Virus record (IMG/VR): IMGVR_UViG_2744054576_000007
Location: 1-64,000 of that record
Length of the DNA: 64,000 nt
DNA from: a virus
Taxonomy: Duplodnaviria; Heunggongvirae; Uroviricota; Caudoviricetes
Reading direction: 5' to 3' (one strand)
Shown: in pieces, positions 24,851 through 58,041 of the stretch
Numbering within the stretch: the stretch's first letter is position 1
Layout: each line of letters begins with the position of its first letter
Notes under the pieces: model-generated
What the model was told of the DNA's origin: nothing
What the model saw: the letters and a program-made list of their open reading frames with translations, nothing else
The model's database searches: none
Translations under genes and position numbers: made by a program

Positions 24851-25714
24851 TTATATTTCGATTTCAGTCTTACCTTTTCTTTTAGTTAGCAGCAATATGA
24901 TCGAAACCGATAAGCAAGTCACTATAAGAATAGAATTCACAATAGTCCTATCATACGAATTGAATGTAGCATATACATCAAACACTATATGAGTTAGAAT
25001 AACGCTCCAAATTCTCTTTGTAATAAACATTATTGATGCAAAGCATAATCCCATCAAACCAATCATAATTGTAATGTCTAGATTAATCCAACCATCAGAA
25101 TATGCAAATGTATGCATCCATCCGAATAAAAAAGAACTTACTATAAACGATATCATTAACAAGGCAATCTGAATATTCTTTCCTTTATTAAGTTTACCGA
25201 CTCCATAATTTAGTAGCAAATAAATCACTAAAATGCTTGAGTATCTCCAAACTTCCTCAGCTCCAGCTAGAATATCTGTTACCAAGCTGATATAAATTTC
25301 ATTTGAAGATATGCTTGTTAGTCCTTGTGGATTGCTGTTCTTAACAAACACTCTACCGACAAGACCTGCTATTAATATTGTAGCAATCGGGGCTAACAAG
25401 GGAACGTATATGTAATAAATAAGAAAACTCAACTTTTTGTTTTTTGTATCAAAGCTATTTTGAGGTAATCTGAAATAAATATTTTTAGATTGCCATAGGG
25501 AGAATAAAAACATGAGAACAAACAGAATTATCTGCGTATAGCCTGTATCGACACCAAAGCGGTATTTTAGAGGGACAAGCAATGGTATAGAAATGAAGAT
25601 CATAACATTAACTAATACAAATACTTTATTATTGATGGTGAACGATTCTGCTAATCTTTCCAGTAGAGCATTTTTCTTCTCTCTTGTCTGCATGGTCTTG
25701 CCTCCGTAAAACAT
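24851..25714 (-). CDS. CPBP-family intramembrane metalloprotease (CAAX protease/Abi, PF02517-like)
   Basis: Polytopic membrane protein with EExxxR (AGAEEVWR), FxxxH (FGWMHTF) and a distal H (LTHIVFD). Confidence 0.55.
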   Translation of the reverse strand: MFYGGKTMQTREKKNALLERLAESFTINNKVFVLVNVMIFISIPLLVPLKYRFGVDTGYTQIILFVLMFLFSLWQSKNIYFRLPQNSFDTKNKKLSFLIYYIYVPLLAPIATILIAGLVGRVFVKNSNPQGLTSISSNEIYISLVTDILAGAEEVWRYSSILVIYLLLNYGVGKLNKGKNIQIALLMISFIVSSFLFGWMHTFAYSDGWINLDITIMIGLMGLCFASIMFITKRIWSVILTHIVFDVYATFNSYDRTIVNSILIVTCLSVSIILLLTKRKGKTEIEI

Positions 25715-27534: not shown

Positions 27535-27548
27535 AGAACGTTTGTTCT
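27535..27548 (-). promoter_or_regulatory. Cheo/LexA-type SOS box AGAACGTTTGTTCT (GAAC-N4-GTTC)
   Basis: Perfect dyad. Minus-strand promoter -35 TTGAAT (27575-27580), 17-nt spacer, -10 TACACT (27552-27557). Box lies 3 nt downstream of the -10 and upstream of the ribosome-binding site of the 27134..27526 gene. Confidence 0.55.
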
Positions 27549-32029: not shown

Positions 32030-33568
32030 TTATATATTTTTGACTAAAATTTCGTTTACTAATTCTATAAATCTATCACCTTCTATAATCTCACTATTAA
32101 AATCTGCACCTAATACATTTAAATGTGATAATGTCTTTTCTAAACCGTCAAACTCTACTGCAAATGGTTCAATGATATTACTTGGTCTTTGGCGAAATGC
32201 ACCAATTTTGTTTTTCATAAAAAACCACTTACCATAAATATTGTCCTTTTCTTCAACCAGCAATAAGTTAAACCCCAGATCACTCTGAATATCAAAGTAA
32301 CCCCAAGCAAGTATCAGTTGGTCTCTAAGTTTGGGGCGTACAACAACCTCAGTTCTACTTTCCCAAAAATCATCTTTTCTAGTTTTGACAAAATCTTTAT
32401 CATACAGTACTCTCAGTCTAATTTTGACTCTTTTTTGTGAGGGTAAACGAAGCTCCAAATTGATGCTATCTCTTTTTAGATCATTGAACTCATCTAAAAT
32501 CATTTTTGAACCAGTATATTTAGTATTGAACTCATTCACATAATCTTTTAGTGGCTCATAAATATGTTCTTTAAATTGATAGTTAATTCTTTTTACATGA
32601 TCCTGTTGTTCGCTTTCTTCTTTTTGTTTTAAAAGTTGCTGAGTCTTGAGCGATTCATCTTTCACAACCTTAACATTGATAAGATTATCAATTAAACTCG
32701 TTACGGAAGTTAAAGGTGTTTCATCTAATCCAATATCTCTCTCAATCTCTTCCCAGTTTTTATAGCGCGCGCTAATATTTTTTTCAATCATCTTATTGAT
32801 GACTTGTACAATACTGTTAGTAATGCCCGGATTAATGCGTTTTATTGGAACTGCGTTTTGAAAAGTATGAGCTTCCTGCCACATAGTCATATCAGCCTCA
32901 TTTTTTACTTCATAAGGATGTCTAAGTGTGGCTAACTCATAAAACAAGATTCCCATTGAATAGATATCATTTTGGATTGTATTCTTTTCGCTTCTCCATC
33001 TCTCTGGAGCCATATATTTAATATGACCAACACCTTTGAAAGTGAGTTGCCTAGTCCCTTCTGTTGCAACTTTAGCCAGACCAAAATCAGCAATTTTTAG
33101 TGTTCCCTTATCAATTAGTATATTATCTGCTTTTATATCCCTATGTACCAAGAGACTATTTATATGTTTCATTCCCTGAATTAACTGACCGTAAAACTCT
33201 CTCAATAGATCATTTGAAAAGAAAACACCTTCTTCTTTTTGCCTATTTAAATAACTCATCAATGTTCCTTGATTTGCATATTCCATAATTAAATAAGGTG
33301 GTAAATTGGGGTACTTATCTTTGTGTACGTAAAAGTATTTTATTGTGTTGGGATGAGAAACTTTTGTTGCCATTTGGCATTCATTAATAAATGTTGCATA
33401 GGCTTCTTGAGTGGGGAATGTTGTTGGCAATGTTTTTAAAGCAAAGATACATTTATCTGATTTCCTTTGTATCTTAAAAACAAAACCAAAGTTCCCATTT
33501 CCAATCATTTCAATTACCTCATACTCCACTTCGGATTCATCAAATACAGTAACACCCTGAGCAATCAT
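32030..33568 (-). CDS. eukaryotic-like Ser/Thr protein kinase with a C-terminal domain of unknown function
   Basis: Gly loop IGNGNFGFVF, catalytic-Lys context ALKTL, HRDIKADNILI, DFGLAK and YMAPER are all present. About 220 C-terminal residues have no recognisable motif. Confidence 0.85.
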   Translation of the reverse strand: MIAQGVTVFDESEVEYEVIEMIGNGNFGFVFKIQRKSDKCIFALKTLPTTFPTQEAYATFINECQMATKVSHPNTIKYFYVHKDKYPNLPPYLIMEYANQGTLMSYLNRQKEEGVFFSNDLLREFYGQLIQGMKHINSLLVHRDIKADNILIDKGTLKIADFGLAKVATEGTRQLTFKGVGHIKYMAPERWRSEKNTIQNDIYSMGILFYELATLRHPYEVKNEADMTMWQEAHTFQNAVPIKRINPGITNSIVQVINKMIEKNISARYKNWEEIERDIGLDETPLTSVTSLIDNLINVKVVKDESLKTQQLLKQKEESEQQDHVKRINYQFKEHIYEPLKDYVNEFNTKYTGSKMILDEFNDLKRDSINLELRLPSQKRVKIRLRVLYDKDFVKTRKDDFWESRTEVVVRPKLRDQLILAWGYFDIQSDLGFNLLLVEEKDNIYGKWFFMKNKIGAFRQRPSNIIEPFAVEFDGLEKTLSHLNVLGADFNSEIIEGDRFIELVNEILVKNI

Positions 33569-47015: not shown

Positions 47016-47092
47016 TGGTGGGTCTTGAGGGATTTAAACCCCCGACCAATCGGTTATGAGCCGACCGCTCTAACCAACTGAGCTAAAGACCC
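47016..47092 (-). tRNA. tRNA-Met (anticodon CAT; could also be initiator or lysidine-Ile type)
   Basis: Manual cloverleaf fold. Acceptor GGGTCTT/AAGACCC, D-arm GCTC-AGTTGGTTA-GAGC, anticodon stem GTCGG/CCGAT around the loop CTCATAA, T-arm GGGGG-TTTAAAT-CCCTC, discriminator A, encoded CCA. Confidence 0.75.
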
Positions 47093-47660: not shown

Positions 47661-47820
47661 AACTTTTCTCCTCTGTAATATTTTTTCTATACATTAATTA
47701 TATGATATTTCCAGAGTTAGGCAACTGAAATTCATATGATATGAATATTTCTTGACAAAACCCTTAATATGGAATGTACTACAATATTTATGTCGCAAAA
47801 TGTCGAAAATCTAAAAAACG

Positions 47821-47834
47821 AGAACATTTGTTCT
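47821..47834 (-). promoter_or_regulatory. Cheo/LexA-type SOS box AGAACATTTGTTCT
   Basis: Perfect GAAC-N4-GTTC dyad. Located 10 nt downstream of a minus-strand promoter: -35 TTGCAT (47869-47874), 18-nt spacer, -10 TATAAT (47845-47850). Confidence 0.55.
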
Positions 47835-47914
47835 GATTTACTTCATTATACCAATACCAAAAGGTAAAATGCAAGAAGCTGCCACTATTTTTATGTATTA
47901 TTGAAAATTTTATT

Positions 47915-48280
47915 TTACCTTTTGAAGTAACTTAGTATTTTTTTCAAGTGTATTGCAGTTACATCAACAAAAGAATTTTTAAGTCTGTTAACATAAATCT
48001 TGTAGCTCTTTTCATCTATGTGTTCAATTTTTCCTATCTGAACCATGCTTCCCCTACTTACTTTTTCGAACTCTGGTAGTTCTTGAAACAATCTCATCGT
48101 TTGATCTACTCTAGTCTCGTCTATGTATTCACCGTCATCGGTCAAATATATAAGTGTAGTTCTTCCGTTTTTTGTCTCAGATTTAAAGGCTTTTATTTCC
48201 CCCACTTGAAGCATAATCGCCTGATCATGTATTTTTTTACCTTCTCTTTTTACTACTTTGATTGTATCAGTTAACTTCAT
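47915..48280 (-). CDS. LytTR-family DNA-binding domain protein with no receiver domain
   Basis: 121 aa. IMLQVGEIKAFKSETKNGRTTLIYLTDDGEYI...FEKVSRGSMVQIGKIEHIDEKSYKIYVN aligns with the AgrA C-terminal LytTR domain (FFRCHRSFLVNLRHIKKID). Confidence 0.5.
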   Translation of the reverse strand: MKLTDTIKVVKREGKKIHDQAIMLQVGEIKAFKSETKNGRTTLIYLTDDGEYIDETRVDQTMRLFQELPEFEKVSRGSMVQIGKIEHIDEKSYKIYVNRLKNSFVDVTAIHLKKILSYFKR

Positions 48281-48356: not shown

Positions 48357-48476
48357 TTATTTTAATTCTTCAGGCACTGGTTCACCGCATACCAGCGTCC
48401 AACTAGCCAGATTCACTTCAGCTACGGTCAGCATCGTAAAAACGAATCCAACTAACATAATCAATTTGCTTTTCAT
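48357..48476 (-). CDS. agrD: AgrD-like autoinducing-peptide precursor (39 aa)
   Basis: Not in the track. Sequence MKSKLIMLVGFVFTMLTVAEVNLASWTLVCGEPVPEELK. N-terminal amphipathic/hydrophobic leader, a single Cys, and a C-terminal PVPEELK that resembles the LamD/AgrD tails IPDELRK and VPKELT. The ATG overlaps the AgrB-like stop (ATGA). Confidence 0.5.
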   Translation of the reverse strand: MKSKLIMLVGFVFTMLTVAEVNLASWTLVCGEPVPEELK

Positions 48477-49012
48477 TCTTCCTTTTCACCTCCCTTCAGG
48501 CGAATAAGAAGAATGCTTTGTACTAATATAGCTAGATTGGATATTGGATGGTTTATTAAATAAAATATTGAAACTAAAAACAATGAAATAATTTTAAACC
48601 ATTTATAATTCTCTTTTTTTACTTTCGTTTGATTTTGTATATCGCTTGGTGAGTAAATTAGAACTAAGAGCAAACTAACTATGAACATTATAAAAGTATG
48701 TGCAGTAAAATAGTAGCCAAGTTTAGAAATAAGAATTATCATTACTGTCGAAAAAATGATGCACTTTTCGGGAGTTTGAAAGTGAAACCCACCCGAAAAT
48801 ATTCTTAATAGTGAGAACCCAAGTATCGCCACCAAACTTTCTTTTAAATTGCCAAAAATTAGAGAAAACAATACTATCAAAAGAATTGGTATGGTATTTG
48901 TAATTATGAATTTTAAGGCATATCGGATGATCCCATACGAAGGTAACTCATCAGGATATTTATTTTTTAAGTGGTGGCTCACCCTATCAACAAAATGATC
49001 AATTATTCTCAT
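48473..49012 (-). CDS. agrB: AgrB-like membrane cysteine endopeptidase (AIP-processing enzyme)
   Basis: 179 aa, polytopic. LRIFSGGFHFQTPEKC places His and Cys with the same H-x7-C spacing as the S. aureus AgrB catalytic H77/C84 (RRHAHGAHAPSSFWC). Confidence 0.55.
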   Translation of the reverse strand: MRIIDHFVDRVSHHLKNKYPDELPSYGIIRYALKFIITNTIPILLIVLFSLIFGNLKESLVAILGFSLLRIFSGGFHFQTPEKCIIFSTVMIILISKLGYYFTAHTFIMFIVSLLLVLIYSPSDIQNQTKVKKENYKWFKIISLFLVSIFYLINHPISNLAILVQSILLIRLKGGEKEE

Positions 49013-49697
49013 CTTTCAATTCCTTTCTAAATTCAATCATTATCATAATGACGAATATTGCCAGCCAAAATAGACCACTTACATATATATTATTAAAAAT
49101 AGATTTACTCATAAATGTTACTCCCAAAATTGACGCAATAAACAAAGTGATATTAGAGAAATTTAATTTGAATTTTAAGGAGTACTGATAGGGTAATGTA
49201 GTGAACCAGATAGATTTTTTTCTTAAATATAAACTTGTAAAGATTACTATACTATCCCCTGCTATTTGTACTATATATCCATATGTAAAGAGTGTGGAAT
49301 CTAATGACTTCGATGTTGACACCATAAAAAGGACAGCGATAATTGTTTGAGCAATAAATGAAAACAAAAAACTAATTCCAGAAATTCTAAGTGATGAAAG
49401 TAGCGATATCTTAAATAAGAAAATGAGAAAAACAATCATCAAACCTATATTTACAATGGGAGCAAAGTTTTCTGGCAGCCCATAATCTCTGTATAAATAA
49501 GTAGCAACAGATATACATAAACTCGCCACTACAAACTGTATCCAATATTCACGAAGTTTAACTTGATACATACCAAAACCGAATGTAAAAATTGCTACCC
49601 CATCGAGCATAGACAATAATATGTATTTAACTGTTTCCATTCCGCTGTTTCTCTCCCTAAATACAAATATAATTAATTTATATAGAGAATATATCAT
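48999..49697 (-). CDS. polytopic (6-7 TM) membrane protein, possible AgrC-like sensor module without a kinase domain
   Basis: 232 aa, almost entirely TM helices. Sits at the head of the AgrB-like/AgrD-like/LytTR gene string. Confidence 0.35.
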   Translation of the reverse strand: MIYSLYKLIIFVFRERNSGMETVKYILLSMLDGVAIFTFGFGMYQVKLREYWIQFVVASLCISVATYLYRDYGLPENFAPIVNIGLMIVFLIFLFKISLLSSLRISGISFLFSFIAQTIIAVLFMVSTSKSLDSTLFTYGYIVQIAGDSIVIFTSLYLRKKSIWFTTLPYQYSLKFKLNFSNITLFIASILGVTFMSKSIFNNIYVSGLFWLAIFVIMIMIEFRKELKDENN

Positions 49698-49751
49698 GAG
49701 CGCTCATATATGTCAACAACTAAACATAAAAAAAGTAGAATAAGTAAAAAC

Positions 49752-50744
49752 TTATTCTACTTCAAGCACTTTTGGATATATTCTTGTTATTGTTTCTACA
49801 TTCAAAAAGTCTTTTGTGTACATTGTTGTATAAAATATTTCTCCATCTTTACTACCCACATTAAACTTTTTGCTTATTTCGTGTATATCGCTTCTTTCCA
49901 ACTTACCTTTTTTATCAATGTAAATGTCCTTTGCCATTTTTAACATTCCTGAATTTCTTATGTCTACAGGAGATAGTTTCTCCATATTCAATTTTGCAGC
50001 AAACTTTGTAATGGTTTGCGATATAAGCGTCTGCTTAACTTTTTCATCTTTAGTGCTCTTTATAATATATGAGCTGTCTTTAAGAGCACTATTTTTTTTG
50101 TTACTGAGACTTCCTTCTCCAAAATTTGAACTATAAGATGTCTCTTCATCAGCTCTTAGCATAGCTTCCAAAAGAAATTCACTAACAATTATTTCACGAT
50201 TTTCCACTTCCCCATATCGACCAACGTTTGTTAATTTTACTGTTCTAGTTGCTTGGTCTATATCTTGCCTTTTTAGATTCCTAATTTCAGAACATTCTCG
50301 TCCCATAATGCCTTCAAATATACTTTGGATTATAACAATATCTCTATTACTATCAATTTGACCAAGCGCTAACTCAAGATCGTCATCTCTTATAAGAATC
50401 TGCTTTGGAATAAACTTTTCGTAAAATTCTTTTCCATTAACAACATCCAATGGATTCAGGTTGTCAGCTCTAAGATCTTGAGAAATAGCCCACTCAATAT
50501 ATTTCTTAATAATTGATCCATATATAGTGGCTGAACTTAACTTATTGGGTGCCAGTAAATACATAACCTCTTCGATTTCAGACAGACTAAAATTGTACAA
50601 ATCTTTGTTGTACTTCATCTCAACTTTGCTTGCTCGTTTTAATTTACTTTCATAATTACCTCTTGTTGCTTTTCTATATCCATCTAAAAACCTTTGTTTT
50701 ATATCTGGATTATATAGATTATCTCCATATATACGGTTCATCAA
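49752..50744 (-). CDS. tyrosine-recombinase/integrase-like protein (divergent; catalytic box II degenerate)
   Basis: N-terminal SAM-like core-binding region. Box I GIMGRECSEIRNLKRQDID (R present). Box II reads VDIRNS instead of HxLRH. Candidate Tyr in EIFYTTMY. Confidence 0.35.
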   Translation of the reverse strand: MMNRIYGDNLYNPDIKQRFLDGYRKATRGNYESKLKRASKVEMKYNKDLYNFSLSEIEEVMYLLAPNKLSSATIYGSIIKKYIEWAISQDLRADNLNPLDVVNGKEFYEKFIPKQILIRDDDLELALGQIDSNRDIVIIQSIFEGIMGRECSEIRNLKRQDIDQATRTVKLTNVGRYGEVENREIIVSEFLLEAMLRADEETSYSSNFGEGSLSNKKNSALKDSSYIIKSTKDEKVKQTLISQTITKFAAKLNMEKLSPVDIRNSGMLKMAKDIYIDKKGKLERSDIHEISKKFNVGSKDGEIFYTTMYTKDFLNVETITRIYPKVLEVE

Positions 50745-54741: not shown

Positions 54742-55128
54742 TTATCTCATTGCCAATGAAACTGATAATGCATCCACAATTTCATGACTATACTTATCTG
54801 GAAGTTCGGTAATTTTAAAATCTAATTGATCTTTGGATATAGTCATAATTTGTTCCAGCAAGATGATGCTATCGCTATATAGTCCTGTGTCTGTTCCACT
54901 TACTTTTACATGAGTAGGCATTTCTTTTTTTACACGTGATGTTACAGGAGCCACTATAACTACTGGAGAATACTTGTTTCCCATATTGTTTCCAATCACC
55001 ACACAAGGTCTTTCACCACTTTGTACGCTCCCTTTATTACTCCCTAAATGTACATTCCACATATCCAAGCGTTTAATTTCTTTTGTCATTCGATCCATTG
55101 CTACCGCCACTATGTAATCACTCCTCAT
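54742..55128 (-). CDS. mazF: MazF/PemK/EndoA-family endoribonuclease toxin
   Basis: SGERPCVVIGNNMGNKYSPVVIVAPVTS...PTHVKV...DSIILLEQIMTISKDQL...IVDALSVSLAM aligns closely with B. subtilis EndoA (NdoA). The likely start is the GTG at 55110 (GAGGAGTG ribosome-binding site) rather than the track ATG. Confidence 0.75.
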   Translation of the reverse strand: MRSDYIVAVAMDRMTKEIKRLDMWNVHLGSNKGSVQSGERPCVVIGNNMGNKYSPVVIVAPVTSRVKKEMPTHVKVSGTDTGLYSDSIILLEQIMTISKDQLDFKITELPDKYSHEIVDALSVSLAMR

Positions 55129-55256: not shown

Positions 55257-55270
55257 GGAACGTTTGTTCT
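55257..55270 (-). promoter_or_regulatory. Cheo/LexA-type SOS box GGAACGTTTGTTCT abutting the mazF -35
   Basis: GAAC-N4-GTTC dyad 3-4 nt upstream of the mazF -35. The same dyad occurs at 27535 and 47821. Confidence 0.5.
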
Positions 55271-57654: not shown

Positions 57655-58041
57655 TTACCAGCTACCAGAATACTTGTTCACCGTTATAGGATAATGGTAT
57701 ATCTCAATAGCCTCATCAATAAATCCTCTCCGTTGAGCTGCCAACAAAGTCTCATACATATTCTTTCGTCCCACTGGGTTGTCAGTATGTAAATAGATAT
57801 TATCAGCCCTCAATCCATGCTCACAAAAGTACTTCACCAAGTCATATCCGTTAGGTAGCTCTTTACCATCCACATCTTCGCCTAGATCATGGTCTAACGT
57901 AAGAATGCCGACACTTCTGGTTTCAAGGATATGTATTGCTTCATAGTATGTACGAGCCACCACAAAGCCATCTGGACAGTCTCTGAGGTCGTCAACATAA
58001 AGGTTGACCTTATTTGTCATAGTCGCATCGCCTTCCTTCAA
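57655..58041 (-). CDS. stand-alone CheY-like receiver (REC) domain protein
   Basis: 128 aa. VNLYVDDLRD (acidic pocket), LTLDHDLGE (phospho-acceptor Asp position), LHTDNP (Thr position) and GRKN (Lys position). Confidence 0.45.
   Translation of the reverse strand: MKEGDATMTNKVNLYVDDLRDCPDGFVVARTYYEAIHILETRSVGILTLDHDLGEDVDGKELPNGYDLVKYFCEHGLRADNIYLHTDNPVGRKNMYETLLAAQRRGFIDEAIEIYHYPITVNKYSGSW

Follow-up and report, generated by a model that had tools for sequence, protein, structure and literature searches.

Between the genes for an AgrB-like membrane peptidase and a LytTR-like protein, a 64,000-nucleotide stretch of phage DNA (IMG/VR record IMGVR_UViG_2744054576_000007, positions 1 to 64,000; hereafter, the window) contains an open reading frame (ORF) of 39 codons. 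An earlier note, made from the sequence alone, took this ORF for the precursor of an autoinducing peptide (AIP) of the AgrD type, with a ring closed on its only cysteine. Is the ORF a gene, which residue closes the ring, and what might such a peptide do in a phage? The best overall explanation, to which we give a probability of roughly 0.7, is that a genuine agrD-type gene in an SPbeta-like Paenibacillus prophage encodes the precursor of a serine-lactone signal, which would be made and sensed by the steps proposed below.

A short gene directly after agrB

The ORF was found at the coordinates first reported for it and on the minus strand, which the earlier note had not given. Its translation is exact, Cys30 is the sole cysteine, and on the same strand it is preceded by the AgrB-like gene (179 aa) and followed by the LytTR-like gene (121 aa), as described. 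The gene, its parts and its enzymatic partner are as follows.

48357..48476, minus strand: agrD-type gene, 39 codons plus stop; ORF translation MKSKLIMLVGFVFTMLTVAEVNLASWTLVCGEPVPEELK
48405-48476, minus strand: predicted leader of the agrD-type gene product, M1-A24
48390-48404, minus strand: predicted ring of the same product, S25-W-T-L-V29
48360-48389, minus strand: predicted discarded tail of the same product, C30-K39 (CGEPVPEELK)
48486..48493, minus strand: Shine-Dalgarno sequence GGAGGTGA of agrD, inside the last agrB codons (...KGGE... motif)
48473..49012, minus strand: AgrB-family membrane peptidase/cyclase, 179 aa (Pfam AgrB PF04647, E=3.9e-27); its stop overlaps the agrD start

The overlap of stop and start in an ATGA is real (the plus strand reads TCAT at 48473-48476), but the bases shared are T and G and not the A that had been named. 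The description of the ORF as unannotated fits as well: the exact peptide does not occur among ~15 billion called proteins, and its nearest called relative is labelled 'hypothetical protein'.

Homologous loci from SPbeta-like Paenibacillus prophages provided a comparison set of 12 distinct peptides, with AgrB proteins that range from 96% down to 38% identity to that of the window. The ORF is present directly after AgrB in every homologous locus examined (12/12 distinct peptides), and a short same-strand ORF adjoins agrB in the window and in all 22 related loci. Pairwise comparisons reveal purifying selection on the peptide gene (nonsynonymous to synonymous ratio, pN/pS, 0.08-0.28; Fisher p 3e-4 to 3e-13), which acts most strongly on the S-W-x-L ring and the P-x-E-L tail and goes beyond a mere requirement for hydrophobicity. 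The Shine-Dalgarno sequence GGAGGTGA stands ~9-12 nt ahead of the peptide start in 22/22 tabulated loci. Its bases (window 48486-48493, and the equivalents in all loci) also encode the C-terminal ...KGGE... of AgrB; part of the conservation of the AgrB C terminus may therefore be a constraint at the nucleotide level.

Membership of the AgrD family is indicated by several lines of evidence. NCBIfam TIGR04223 (AgrD) is matched by 8/9 family members (best E=9.5e-7), the window peptide, although its own score is below the cutoff, aligns to this model end to end (residues 4-39 against model positions 2-37 of 38), and the relatives WP_080658643.1, WP_311078191.1 and WP_215154225.1 carry the NCBI name 'cyclic lactone autoinducer peptide'. 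In the adjacent AgrB, His77 and Cys84 are invariant in an alignment of 9 homologues; the corresponding His77 and Cys84 of S. aureus AgrB are required for AgrD processing (PMC5789755). Homologues of this AgrB come exclusively from Paenibacillus species (among them polymyxa, jamilae, peoriae, lautus and lactis). The profile matches, the database names and the His77/Cys84 pair together support the proposal of an AgrD-type precursor beside AgrB. So does the charged tail, whose likeness to AgrD tails was rightly pointed out: in CGEPVPEELK, P35 occupies tail position 6 and L38 tail position 9, within a conserved [VAL]-P-x-[ES]-[LM] motif. We conclude that the ORF is a real, previously unannotated agrD-type gene, whose peptide adds a new member to a known family with relatives that public databases already name.

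The leader had been called hydrophobic or amphipathic. It is strongly hydrophobic, with MKSK followed by 14 hydrophobic residues and then small residues ahead of Ser25, but it resembles a Sec signal peptide more than an amphipathic helix. A peptide so short and hydrophobic might be a membrane-active molecule (a type I toxin, or a holin-like or phenol-soluble modulin-like peptide) or a non-functional remnant, and the leaders of S. aureus AgrD are themselves modulin-like (PMC5789755). However, neither a membrane-active peptide nor a remnant is expected to be under selection focused on the S-W-x-L ring and the P-x-E-L tail, to match an AgrD hidden Markov model (HMM) and to be linked obligately to AgrB, and we consider this explanation barely credible.

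Serine 25 as the predicted ring residue

Staphylococcal AIPs have five-residue, 16-membered rings, and most characterised AIPs close them with Cys (PMC12312760). The earlier note had accordingly looked to Cys30 and, from the short distance between this residue and the tail, had proposed a small ring or an atypical processing site, either of which would be new chemistry. The corresponding product would be a small thiolactone such as C-G-E-P-V, with an AgrB cut that leaves PEELK as the tail. Cys30 is the only cysteine available, and the two closest relatives of the window have it too. The expected conservation of this cysteine was nevertheless not borne out, since position 30 is Cys in those three peptides only and varies between C, G, H and Y among homologues (Gly in L004 and in L023-25, His in L005-L009 and L020-22, Tyr in L010-12). 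L004 is instructive, because its AgrB is 78% identical to that of the window and its peptide has the same SWTLV motif, yet position 30 is Gly. In the nine peptides aligned first, G10, S25, W26, L28 and P35 are invariant, whereas G31, E32 and P33 of the putative CGEPV ring vary among close relatives. Furthermore, S. aureus AgrB needs the first nine tail residues of AgrD, Leu41 included (PMC5789755), and the five residues of PEELK fall short of this and lack the conserved Leu in that position. A ring on Cys30, small or otherwise atypical, is thus very unlikely.

The register of the tail points to Ser25 instead. In S. aureus AgrD-I, the ring residue Cys28 lies ten residues before Pro38 and thirteen before Leu41. 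Counting back ten residues from Pro35 and thirteen from Leu38 of the window peptide leads in both cases to Ser25. The S. aureus register used here agrees with the Glu34, Leu41, 14-residue tail and 8-residue AIP given in the literature, where removal of a 14-residue tail from AgrD is described (PMC12312760; PMC5789755). When 23 peptides were anchored on the tail motif, Ser was found five residues before the predicted cut (position -5) in every SPbeta-like locus. The AgrD sequence in the record of the C. difficile phage phiCDHM1 also has Ser at -5 in the same register (SVWYI/NQPKMPKSLKK, the slash marking the cut). Because S25, W26, L28 and P35 are invariant in the nine-peptide alignment, because the Pro-10 and Leu-13 register selects the same residue, and because position 30 is variable, Ser25 is the favoured nucleophile. 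Thr27 was considered as a nucleophile and rejected, as position 27 is T, I or F.

On the best reading of these alignments, we predict an ordinary lactone of 16 ring members, Ser-Trp-Thr-Leu-Val, closed on Ser25, and Cys30 would be the variable first residue of a discarded ten-residue tail. Serine lactones are rare but known among AIPs, the examples being the S. pseudintermedius AIP and E. faecalis GBAP (PMC12312760). The short spacing between Cys30 and the tail is a correct description of the sequence, but it is no sign of new chemistry; with Ser25 as the nucleophile, nothing about the spacing is anomalous. The gene encodes an ordinary, if rare, Ser-type member of the AgrD family, and its main practical value lies in the missing annotation. 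Ring variants among the SPbeta-like relatives (SWTLV, SWTLI, SWILI, SWFLI, SWTIL and SALWL) suggest, by analogy with arbitrium and staphylococcal agr, that pherotypes may exist.

The proposed route begins with translation of the peptide from the conserved Shine-Dalgarno sequence, coupled to that of agrB. The hydrophobic 24-residue leader would place the peptide in the membrane, where AgrB, through His77/Cys84, would cut between Val29 and Cys30 and free the tail CGEPVPEELK. This cut is proposed because Pro35 and Leu38 are in register with S. aureus AgrD, in which Leu41 is tail residue 9. The hydroxyl of Ser25 would then resolve the acyl-enzyme to give the 16-membered lactone, while Cys30 would leave with the tail. 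Without an exocyclic extension, cyclic SWTLV has a predicted mass of 586.31 Da. Removal of the leader would fall to a second protease.

The window also encodes a 287-aa protein with a CPBP/Rce1-like intramembrane protease domain (24851-25714, minus strand; Pfam 2.3e-6), which belongs to the family of MroQ, the protein that removes the AgrD leader in S. aureus. It could be a leader protease or an unrelated Abi/immunity protein.

A linear, uncyclised pheromone in the manner of AimP or Phr would be another conceivable product. It would be exported by way of the signal peptide, and AgrB would only trim the tail or serve some other role. The Sec-like leader suits this idea, and linear peptides are known in SPbeta-like phages (arbitrium; PMC10516654). 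AgrB-type cyclisation is favoured, however, by the strict association of the peptide with an AgrB whose His/Cys dyad is intact and by the invariant Ser exactly at -5 from the predicted cut, and no cytoplasmic receptor of the AimR/Rap type was seen in the window. We regard a linear product as unlikely and retain the serine lactone.

A proposed receptor pair without kinase or receiver

The lactone is most likely read by a protein from its own operon, and the two other genes co-transcribed with agrB and agrD are candidates for reception and response.

48999..49640, minus strand: membrane protein, 213 aa, multi-helix, probable peptide receptor; AgrC sensor-like, without kinase
47915..48280, minus strand: stand-alone LytTR DNA-binding protein, 121 aa, no receiver domain (Pfam LytTR E=2.6e-4)

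The membrane-protein ORF, called mechanically, extends to 49697 (232 aa). An internal ATG at 49640 is the probable start, because homologues have 213-216 aa and the conserved promoter falls inside the 5' extension. A Pfam search identified no domain in the 213-aa protein, which matches phrog_15604 'membrane protein' (1.2e-10). Its family comprises 139 clusters among 1.84 billion representatives, with full-length members of ~205-240 aa, and no cluster includes a fusion to a kinase. The family was compared by hhalign with the sensor regions of 19 AgrC-type kinases (HATPase_c_5 plus SPOB_a), of which the reference kinase, in L001, lies beside an AgrA-type regulator and an AgrB. The comparison gave a probability of 84-85% over 161 colinear columns, whereas controls (the membrane family against AgrB, AgrB against the AgrC sensors, and the membrane family against the reversed sensor alignment) gave 0.4-1.2%. 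An AlphaFold2 model of the protein has 7 helices, with a predicted local distance difference test score (pLDDT) of 78. The membrane protein is likely, on the strength of the profile alignment, to be homologous to the AgrC sensor module. Identity as a CPBP/MroQ-type protease was rejected, as the protein has no Rce1-like match and no conserved His.

The LytTR match of the 121-aa protein covers residues 21-99 and, at 21.6 bits, is just below the cutoff of 22.6. Pfam LytTR is matched by 9/10 members of its family (best 4.2e-7), and the family profile finds ComE (7e-4) and the LytTR domains of AgrA (0.04) in the PDB. Pfam detected no Response_reg domain in this protein, in contrast to the AgrA-type protein in L001, which has both domains. 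A hypothetical protein of Paenibacillus sp. CMAA1739 matches the 121-aa protein with 100% identity. A structure prediction for the protein from a two-sequence alignment reached a pLDDT of 49, too poor for fold searching. By analogy, the cassette resembles Agr signalling with the phosphorelay taken out, perhaps similar in action to the LytTR regulatory systems (LRS) of S. mutans.

The features around the cassette bear on how it is controlled and on what it may control.

49688..49716, minus strand: cassette promoter-like site, TTGACA-17-TATATT plus TG extension, 11/12 consensus; position conserved in all SPbeta-like loci
49732..49763, minus strand: terminator-like hairpin plus T-run ending the MrpR/YopR gene; conserved in all loci, immediately upstream of the cassette promoter
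49752..50744, minus strand: MrpR/YopR-like master repressor (tyrosine-recombinase fold; MrpR_N_CB 2e-24, MrpR_C_cat 1.4e-8), a context gene
47661..47914, minus strand: conserved regulatory region after the cassette, with two promoter-like sites, a LexA/Cheo-type box and a direct repeat
~47845-47874, minus strand: extended -10 promoter-like site, in the region after the LytTR gene
47822-47833, minus strand: LexA/Cheo-type box GAACAAATGTTC, conserved in all related loci, just downstream of the extended -10 site
47791-47805, minus strand: direct repeat CGACATTTTGCGACA (CGACAT-N4-CGACA, 10-bp period), same sequence and position in all SPbeta-like loci
47697-47724, minus strand: second promoter-like site, TTGCCT-16-TATAAT, ahead of a conserved 126-aa gene

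A megablast search of the 3.6-kb locus against phage records gave no match. Distant blastn matches relate the neighbouring genes to the Bacillus SPbeta-like phages Goe11/12/14, and tblastn with phi3T proteins located YopR (7e-23) and YopQ (2.6e-40) in the window, adjacent as they are in phi3T. The closest viral contigs are 160-177 kb long. Because of these blastn links, the Paenibacillus homologues, the size of the relatives and the YopQ-YopR adjacency, the window is assigned to a large SPbeta-like Paenibacillus prophage, probably >125 kb. A local HMM scan found one fixed block in every SPbeta-like locus, in the order YopQ-like (DndB) protein, MrpR, membrane protein, AgrB, peptide, LytTR protein and 126-aa protein. 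The core order of membrane protein, AgrB, peptide and LytTR protein is present in all SPbeta-like loci and in nearly all loci from smaller phages; contigs L026 and L027 stop before a possible LytTR gene.

The region at 47661-47914 is a candidate target of the LytTR protein, and the CGACATTTTGCGACA repeat within it could be an operator for that protein or for MrpR. Elsewhere in the window, the repeat has only two copies with one mismatch (33613 and 59978). GAAC-N4-GTTC palindromes, which resemble the Bacillus LexA/Cheo box, occur three times (47822-47833, 27536-27547 and 55258-55269) against 0.53 expected, and all three are intergenic or promoter-proximal. These LexA-type boxes suggest direct SOS control of phage promoters. 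Beyond the 126-aa gene lie genes for a YorF-like protein and an AAA_24 ATPase. A tRNA-Met (CAT; 47016-47092, minus strand) stands just downstream of the 126-aa gene in a phage gene block, and an Rfam search near the locus returned nothing else.

A gene for a PemK/MazF-type toxin (54742-55128, minus strand; Pfam 1e-24) is located upstream, shares its strand with the YopQ-like and MrpR genes, and is also found in L010-L012. For phi3T, it has been proposed that AimX and YosL act as MazE-like antitoxins (PMC10516654), and a phage-borne MazF at this place is therefore suggestive. The window also contains genes for a eukaryotic-type Ser/Thr protein kinase (32030-33568, minus strand; Pkinase 1e-49) and for a protein with a cREC_REC 'cyclic-phosphate processing receiver' domain (57655-58041, minus strand; 9e-30).

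In the last steps of the proposed route, the lactone would be sensed by the 213-aa membrane protein and the signal passed without phosphorylation, for example by sequestration at the membrane and release, to the LytTR-only protein. The outcome, more speculatively, would be an influence on lysis-lysogeny through peptide signals exchanged among lysogens or infecting phages. This role is proposed because the operon sits between the gene for the master repressor and a promoter region with a LexA box, and because AimR was not found in the window. Searches by tblastn with AimR, AimP and AimX of phi3T against the 64 kb, including the 12 kb upstream of the YopQ-like gene, yielded none (best E=7.7), and no AimR-type family was recognised among the large ORFs of the window. 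Position and analogy make a peptide input to lysis-lysogeny control a speculative role for the Agr-type cassette.

Alternatively, the cassette, though it does yield the cyclic peptide, could be a 'moron' whose peptide manipulates or eavesdrops on the quorum sensing of the Paenibacillus host or of competitors. A terminator precedes the cassette, which has a strong sigma-A-type promoter of its own, both usual for morons; the category of phrog_15604 is 'moron, auxiliary metabolic gene and host takeover'; and the use of host regulators by phiCDHM1 has been discussed (PMC3901668; PMC11945551). However, the membrane and LytTR proteins accompany AgrB and AgrD in very different phages wherever the contig is long enough, which argues for one self-contained circuit, and the fixed site between repressor gene and LexA-box promoter region in all SPbeta-like loci argues for a function centred on the phage. 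No close host AgrB paralogue was found. This is a serious alternative, to which we give a small but real chance.

The broader proposal is that SPbeta-like Paenibacillus prophages and several smaller Brevibacillus/Paenibacillus phages share a self-contained Agr circuit free of phosphorelay (sensor-only membrane protein, AgrB, Ser-lactone AgrD and LytTR-only protein), which would serve communication between phages beside MrpR and functionally replace arbitrium. We put this forward tentatively, at clearly less than even odds. If true, phages would possess a second class of peptide communication with a chemistry of its own, in which a cyclic peptide is sensed at the membrane. Control of lysis-lysogeny by such a circuit would mean that phage peptide communication evolved at least twice, with different chemistry and sensing logic, and would offer a simple four-gene model for AgrC-type sensor signalling without phosphotransfer.

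Several observations weigh against the explanation preferred here, in which a serine lactone is made by AgrB and read by the cassette. Taken alone, the window peptide scores 12.2 bits (E=0.15) against TIGR04223, below the cutoff of 19. We infer the cleavage site, the ring size and the removal of the leader entirely from alignment. The similarity of the membrane protein to the AgrC sensor is moderate: hhalign of its family against the single phiCDHM1 AgrC sequence gave a probability of 0.5%, the signal being confined to the 19-kinase alignment from a different AgrC-type group, and fold searches with its model were uninformative. No LytTR-type direct repeats occur upstream of the cassette promoter in 49600-49800, where the MrpR terminator abuts the -35 element, and there is therefore no obvious autoinduction loop. 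An AimR could be encoded elsewhere in the phage, outside the 64 kb examined.

Comparison with known systems

The signal-making half of the cassette resembles staphylococcal AgrD/AgrB, especially the system behind the S. pseudintermedius Ser-lactone AIP, and FsrD/GBAP. A short precursor with a leader of ~24 residues follows directly after agrB, the nucleophile lies five residues before the AgrB cut, the acidic tail has Pro at 6 and Leu at 9, and AgrB has His77 and Cys84. The window peptide would share with some of these systems the use of Ser instead of Cys, which is rare but has precedents. The differences are that the tail of the window peptide has only 10 residues (14-15 in S. aureus), that the leader is strongly hydrophobic and signal peptide-like, and that the cassette is borne by a prophage. 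Unlike canonical agrBDCA, it also has neither an AgrC kinase (HPK10, HATPase_c_5) nor an AgrA receiver, and no kinase gene at all. It is this context, a signal-making AgrB/AgrD half joined to a receptor half without kinase or receiver and conserved across unrelated temperate phages, that is unusual.

The closest parallels in layout are the Brevibacillus laterosporus phages Abouo, Davies and Emery and the Paenibacillus larvae phages Harrison and Paisley, in which genes for a membrane protein (~222 aa), AgrB, a ~40-aa peptide and a ~120-aa LytTR-like protein occur in identical order. These cassettes belong to the same PHROG families as that of the window and are found in temperate phages near lysogeny genes; several IMG/VR contigs contain the four-gene cassette as well. 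For three of these phages, Hargreaves et al. (2014; PMC3901668) pointed to AgrB, a putative AgrD and membrane proteins without HATPase_c, and Abouo gp46 already carries the annotation 'cyclic lactone autoinducer peptide'. The kinase-less and receiver-less cassette is thus an uncharacterised variant of Agr signalling that was partly noticed in 2014. It differs between the two groups of phages, however: the AgrB proteins of the Abouo/Harrison type are only 26-32% identical to that of the window, and the window cassette is in a >125-kb SPbeta-like prophage beside MrpR. The LytTR-like gene of the Abouo/Harrison type is annotated 'peptidase'. Two of these ~120-aa genes, L013:3648-4016 (Abouo gp47) and L014:3648-4004 (Harrison gp41), both phrog_15081, match the LytTR family profile in a local HMM search (E 1e-35 to 1e-40), and judged by this match the annotation looks wrong.

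The peptides differ too. Those of the Abouo/Harrison type have no Ser or Cys at -5 but have Lys at -4 and Gly at +1, whereas the window peptide has Ser at -5. Lys at -4 together with Gly at +1 was found in 7/7 distinct smaller-phage peptides (L013:3516-3644, L014:3513-3641, L015:3524-3640, L026-L029 and L031), with KFGL/G, KVFL/G, KVTI/G, KGAI/G, KTNI/G, KAVV/G and KAVI/G around the predicted cut. An epsilon-lactam on Lys(-4) would have 16 ring atoms, equal to a (thio)lactone on Cys or Ser at -5. These peptides may, from their sequences, be macrolactam signals made by AgrB; we found no report of AgrB-made Lys(-4) macrolactam signals in the literature.

The agr3 locus of phiCDHM1 (AgrC-AgrB-AgrD) is likewise phage-borne, and its AgrD has Ser in the canonical register and a tail that closely resembles those of L010-L012. 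The locus differs in having a full AgrC histidine kinase (HATPase_c_5) and no LytTR gene, in contrast to the sensor-only membrane protein and the LytTR-only protein of the window.

For the receptor half, HdrRM and BrsRM of S. mutans offer a plausible model of how the 213-aa protein could govern the 121-aa protein: a stand-alone LytTR regulator shares its transcript with a membrane protein, and there is no phosphorelay. In these LRS the membrane protein restrains the soluble LytTR regulator (Zou et al., 2018; PMC6193735). LRS operons have direct repeats of ~9 bp, 11-13 bp apart, ~10 bp ahead of their -35 element. In the window the gene order is reversed, with the membrane protein first, and no 9-bp/12-bp direct repeats stand upstream of the operon promoter; the cassette therefore falls outside the LRS family as defined. 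Judging by the absence of any Pfam match, its membrane protein has no relationship to the LRS inhibitors that have been named, and LRS, unlike the window cassette, are not known to be linked to AgrB/AgrD.

The arbitrium system of SPbeta and phi3T (AimR-AimP-AimX) is similar in that a module for a peptide signal lies near the yopQ-yopR/mrpR control of lysis-lysogeny. It is unrelated in sequence and mechanism, as it employs a linear hexapeptide, import by Opp and a cytoplasmic TPR receptor. The location is also different: in SPbeta and phi3T, the yopM-R operon, with mrpR as its last gene, is closely preceded by aimR-aimP-aimX (PMC10516654), whereas in the window the Agr-type cassette follows directly downstream of mrpR.

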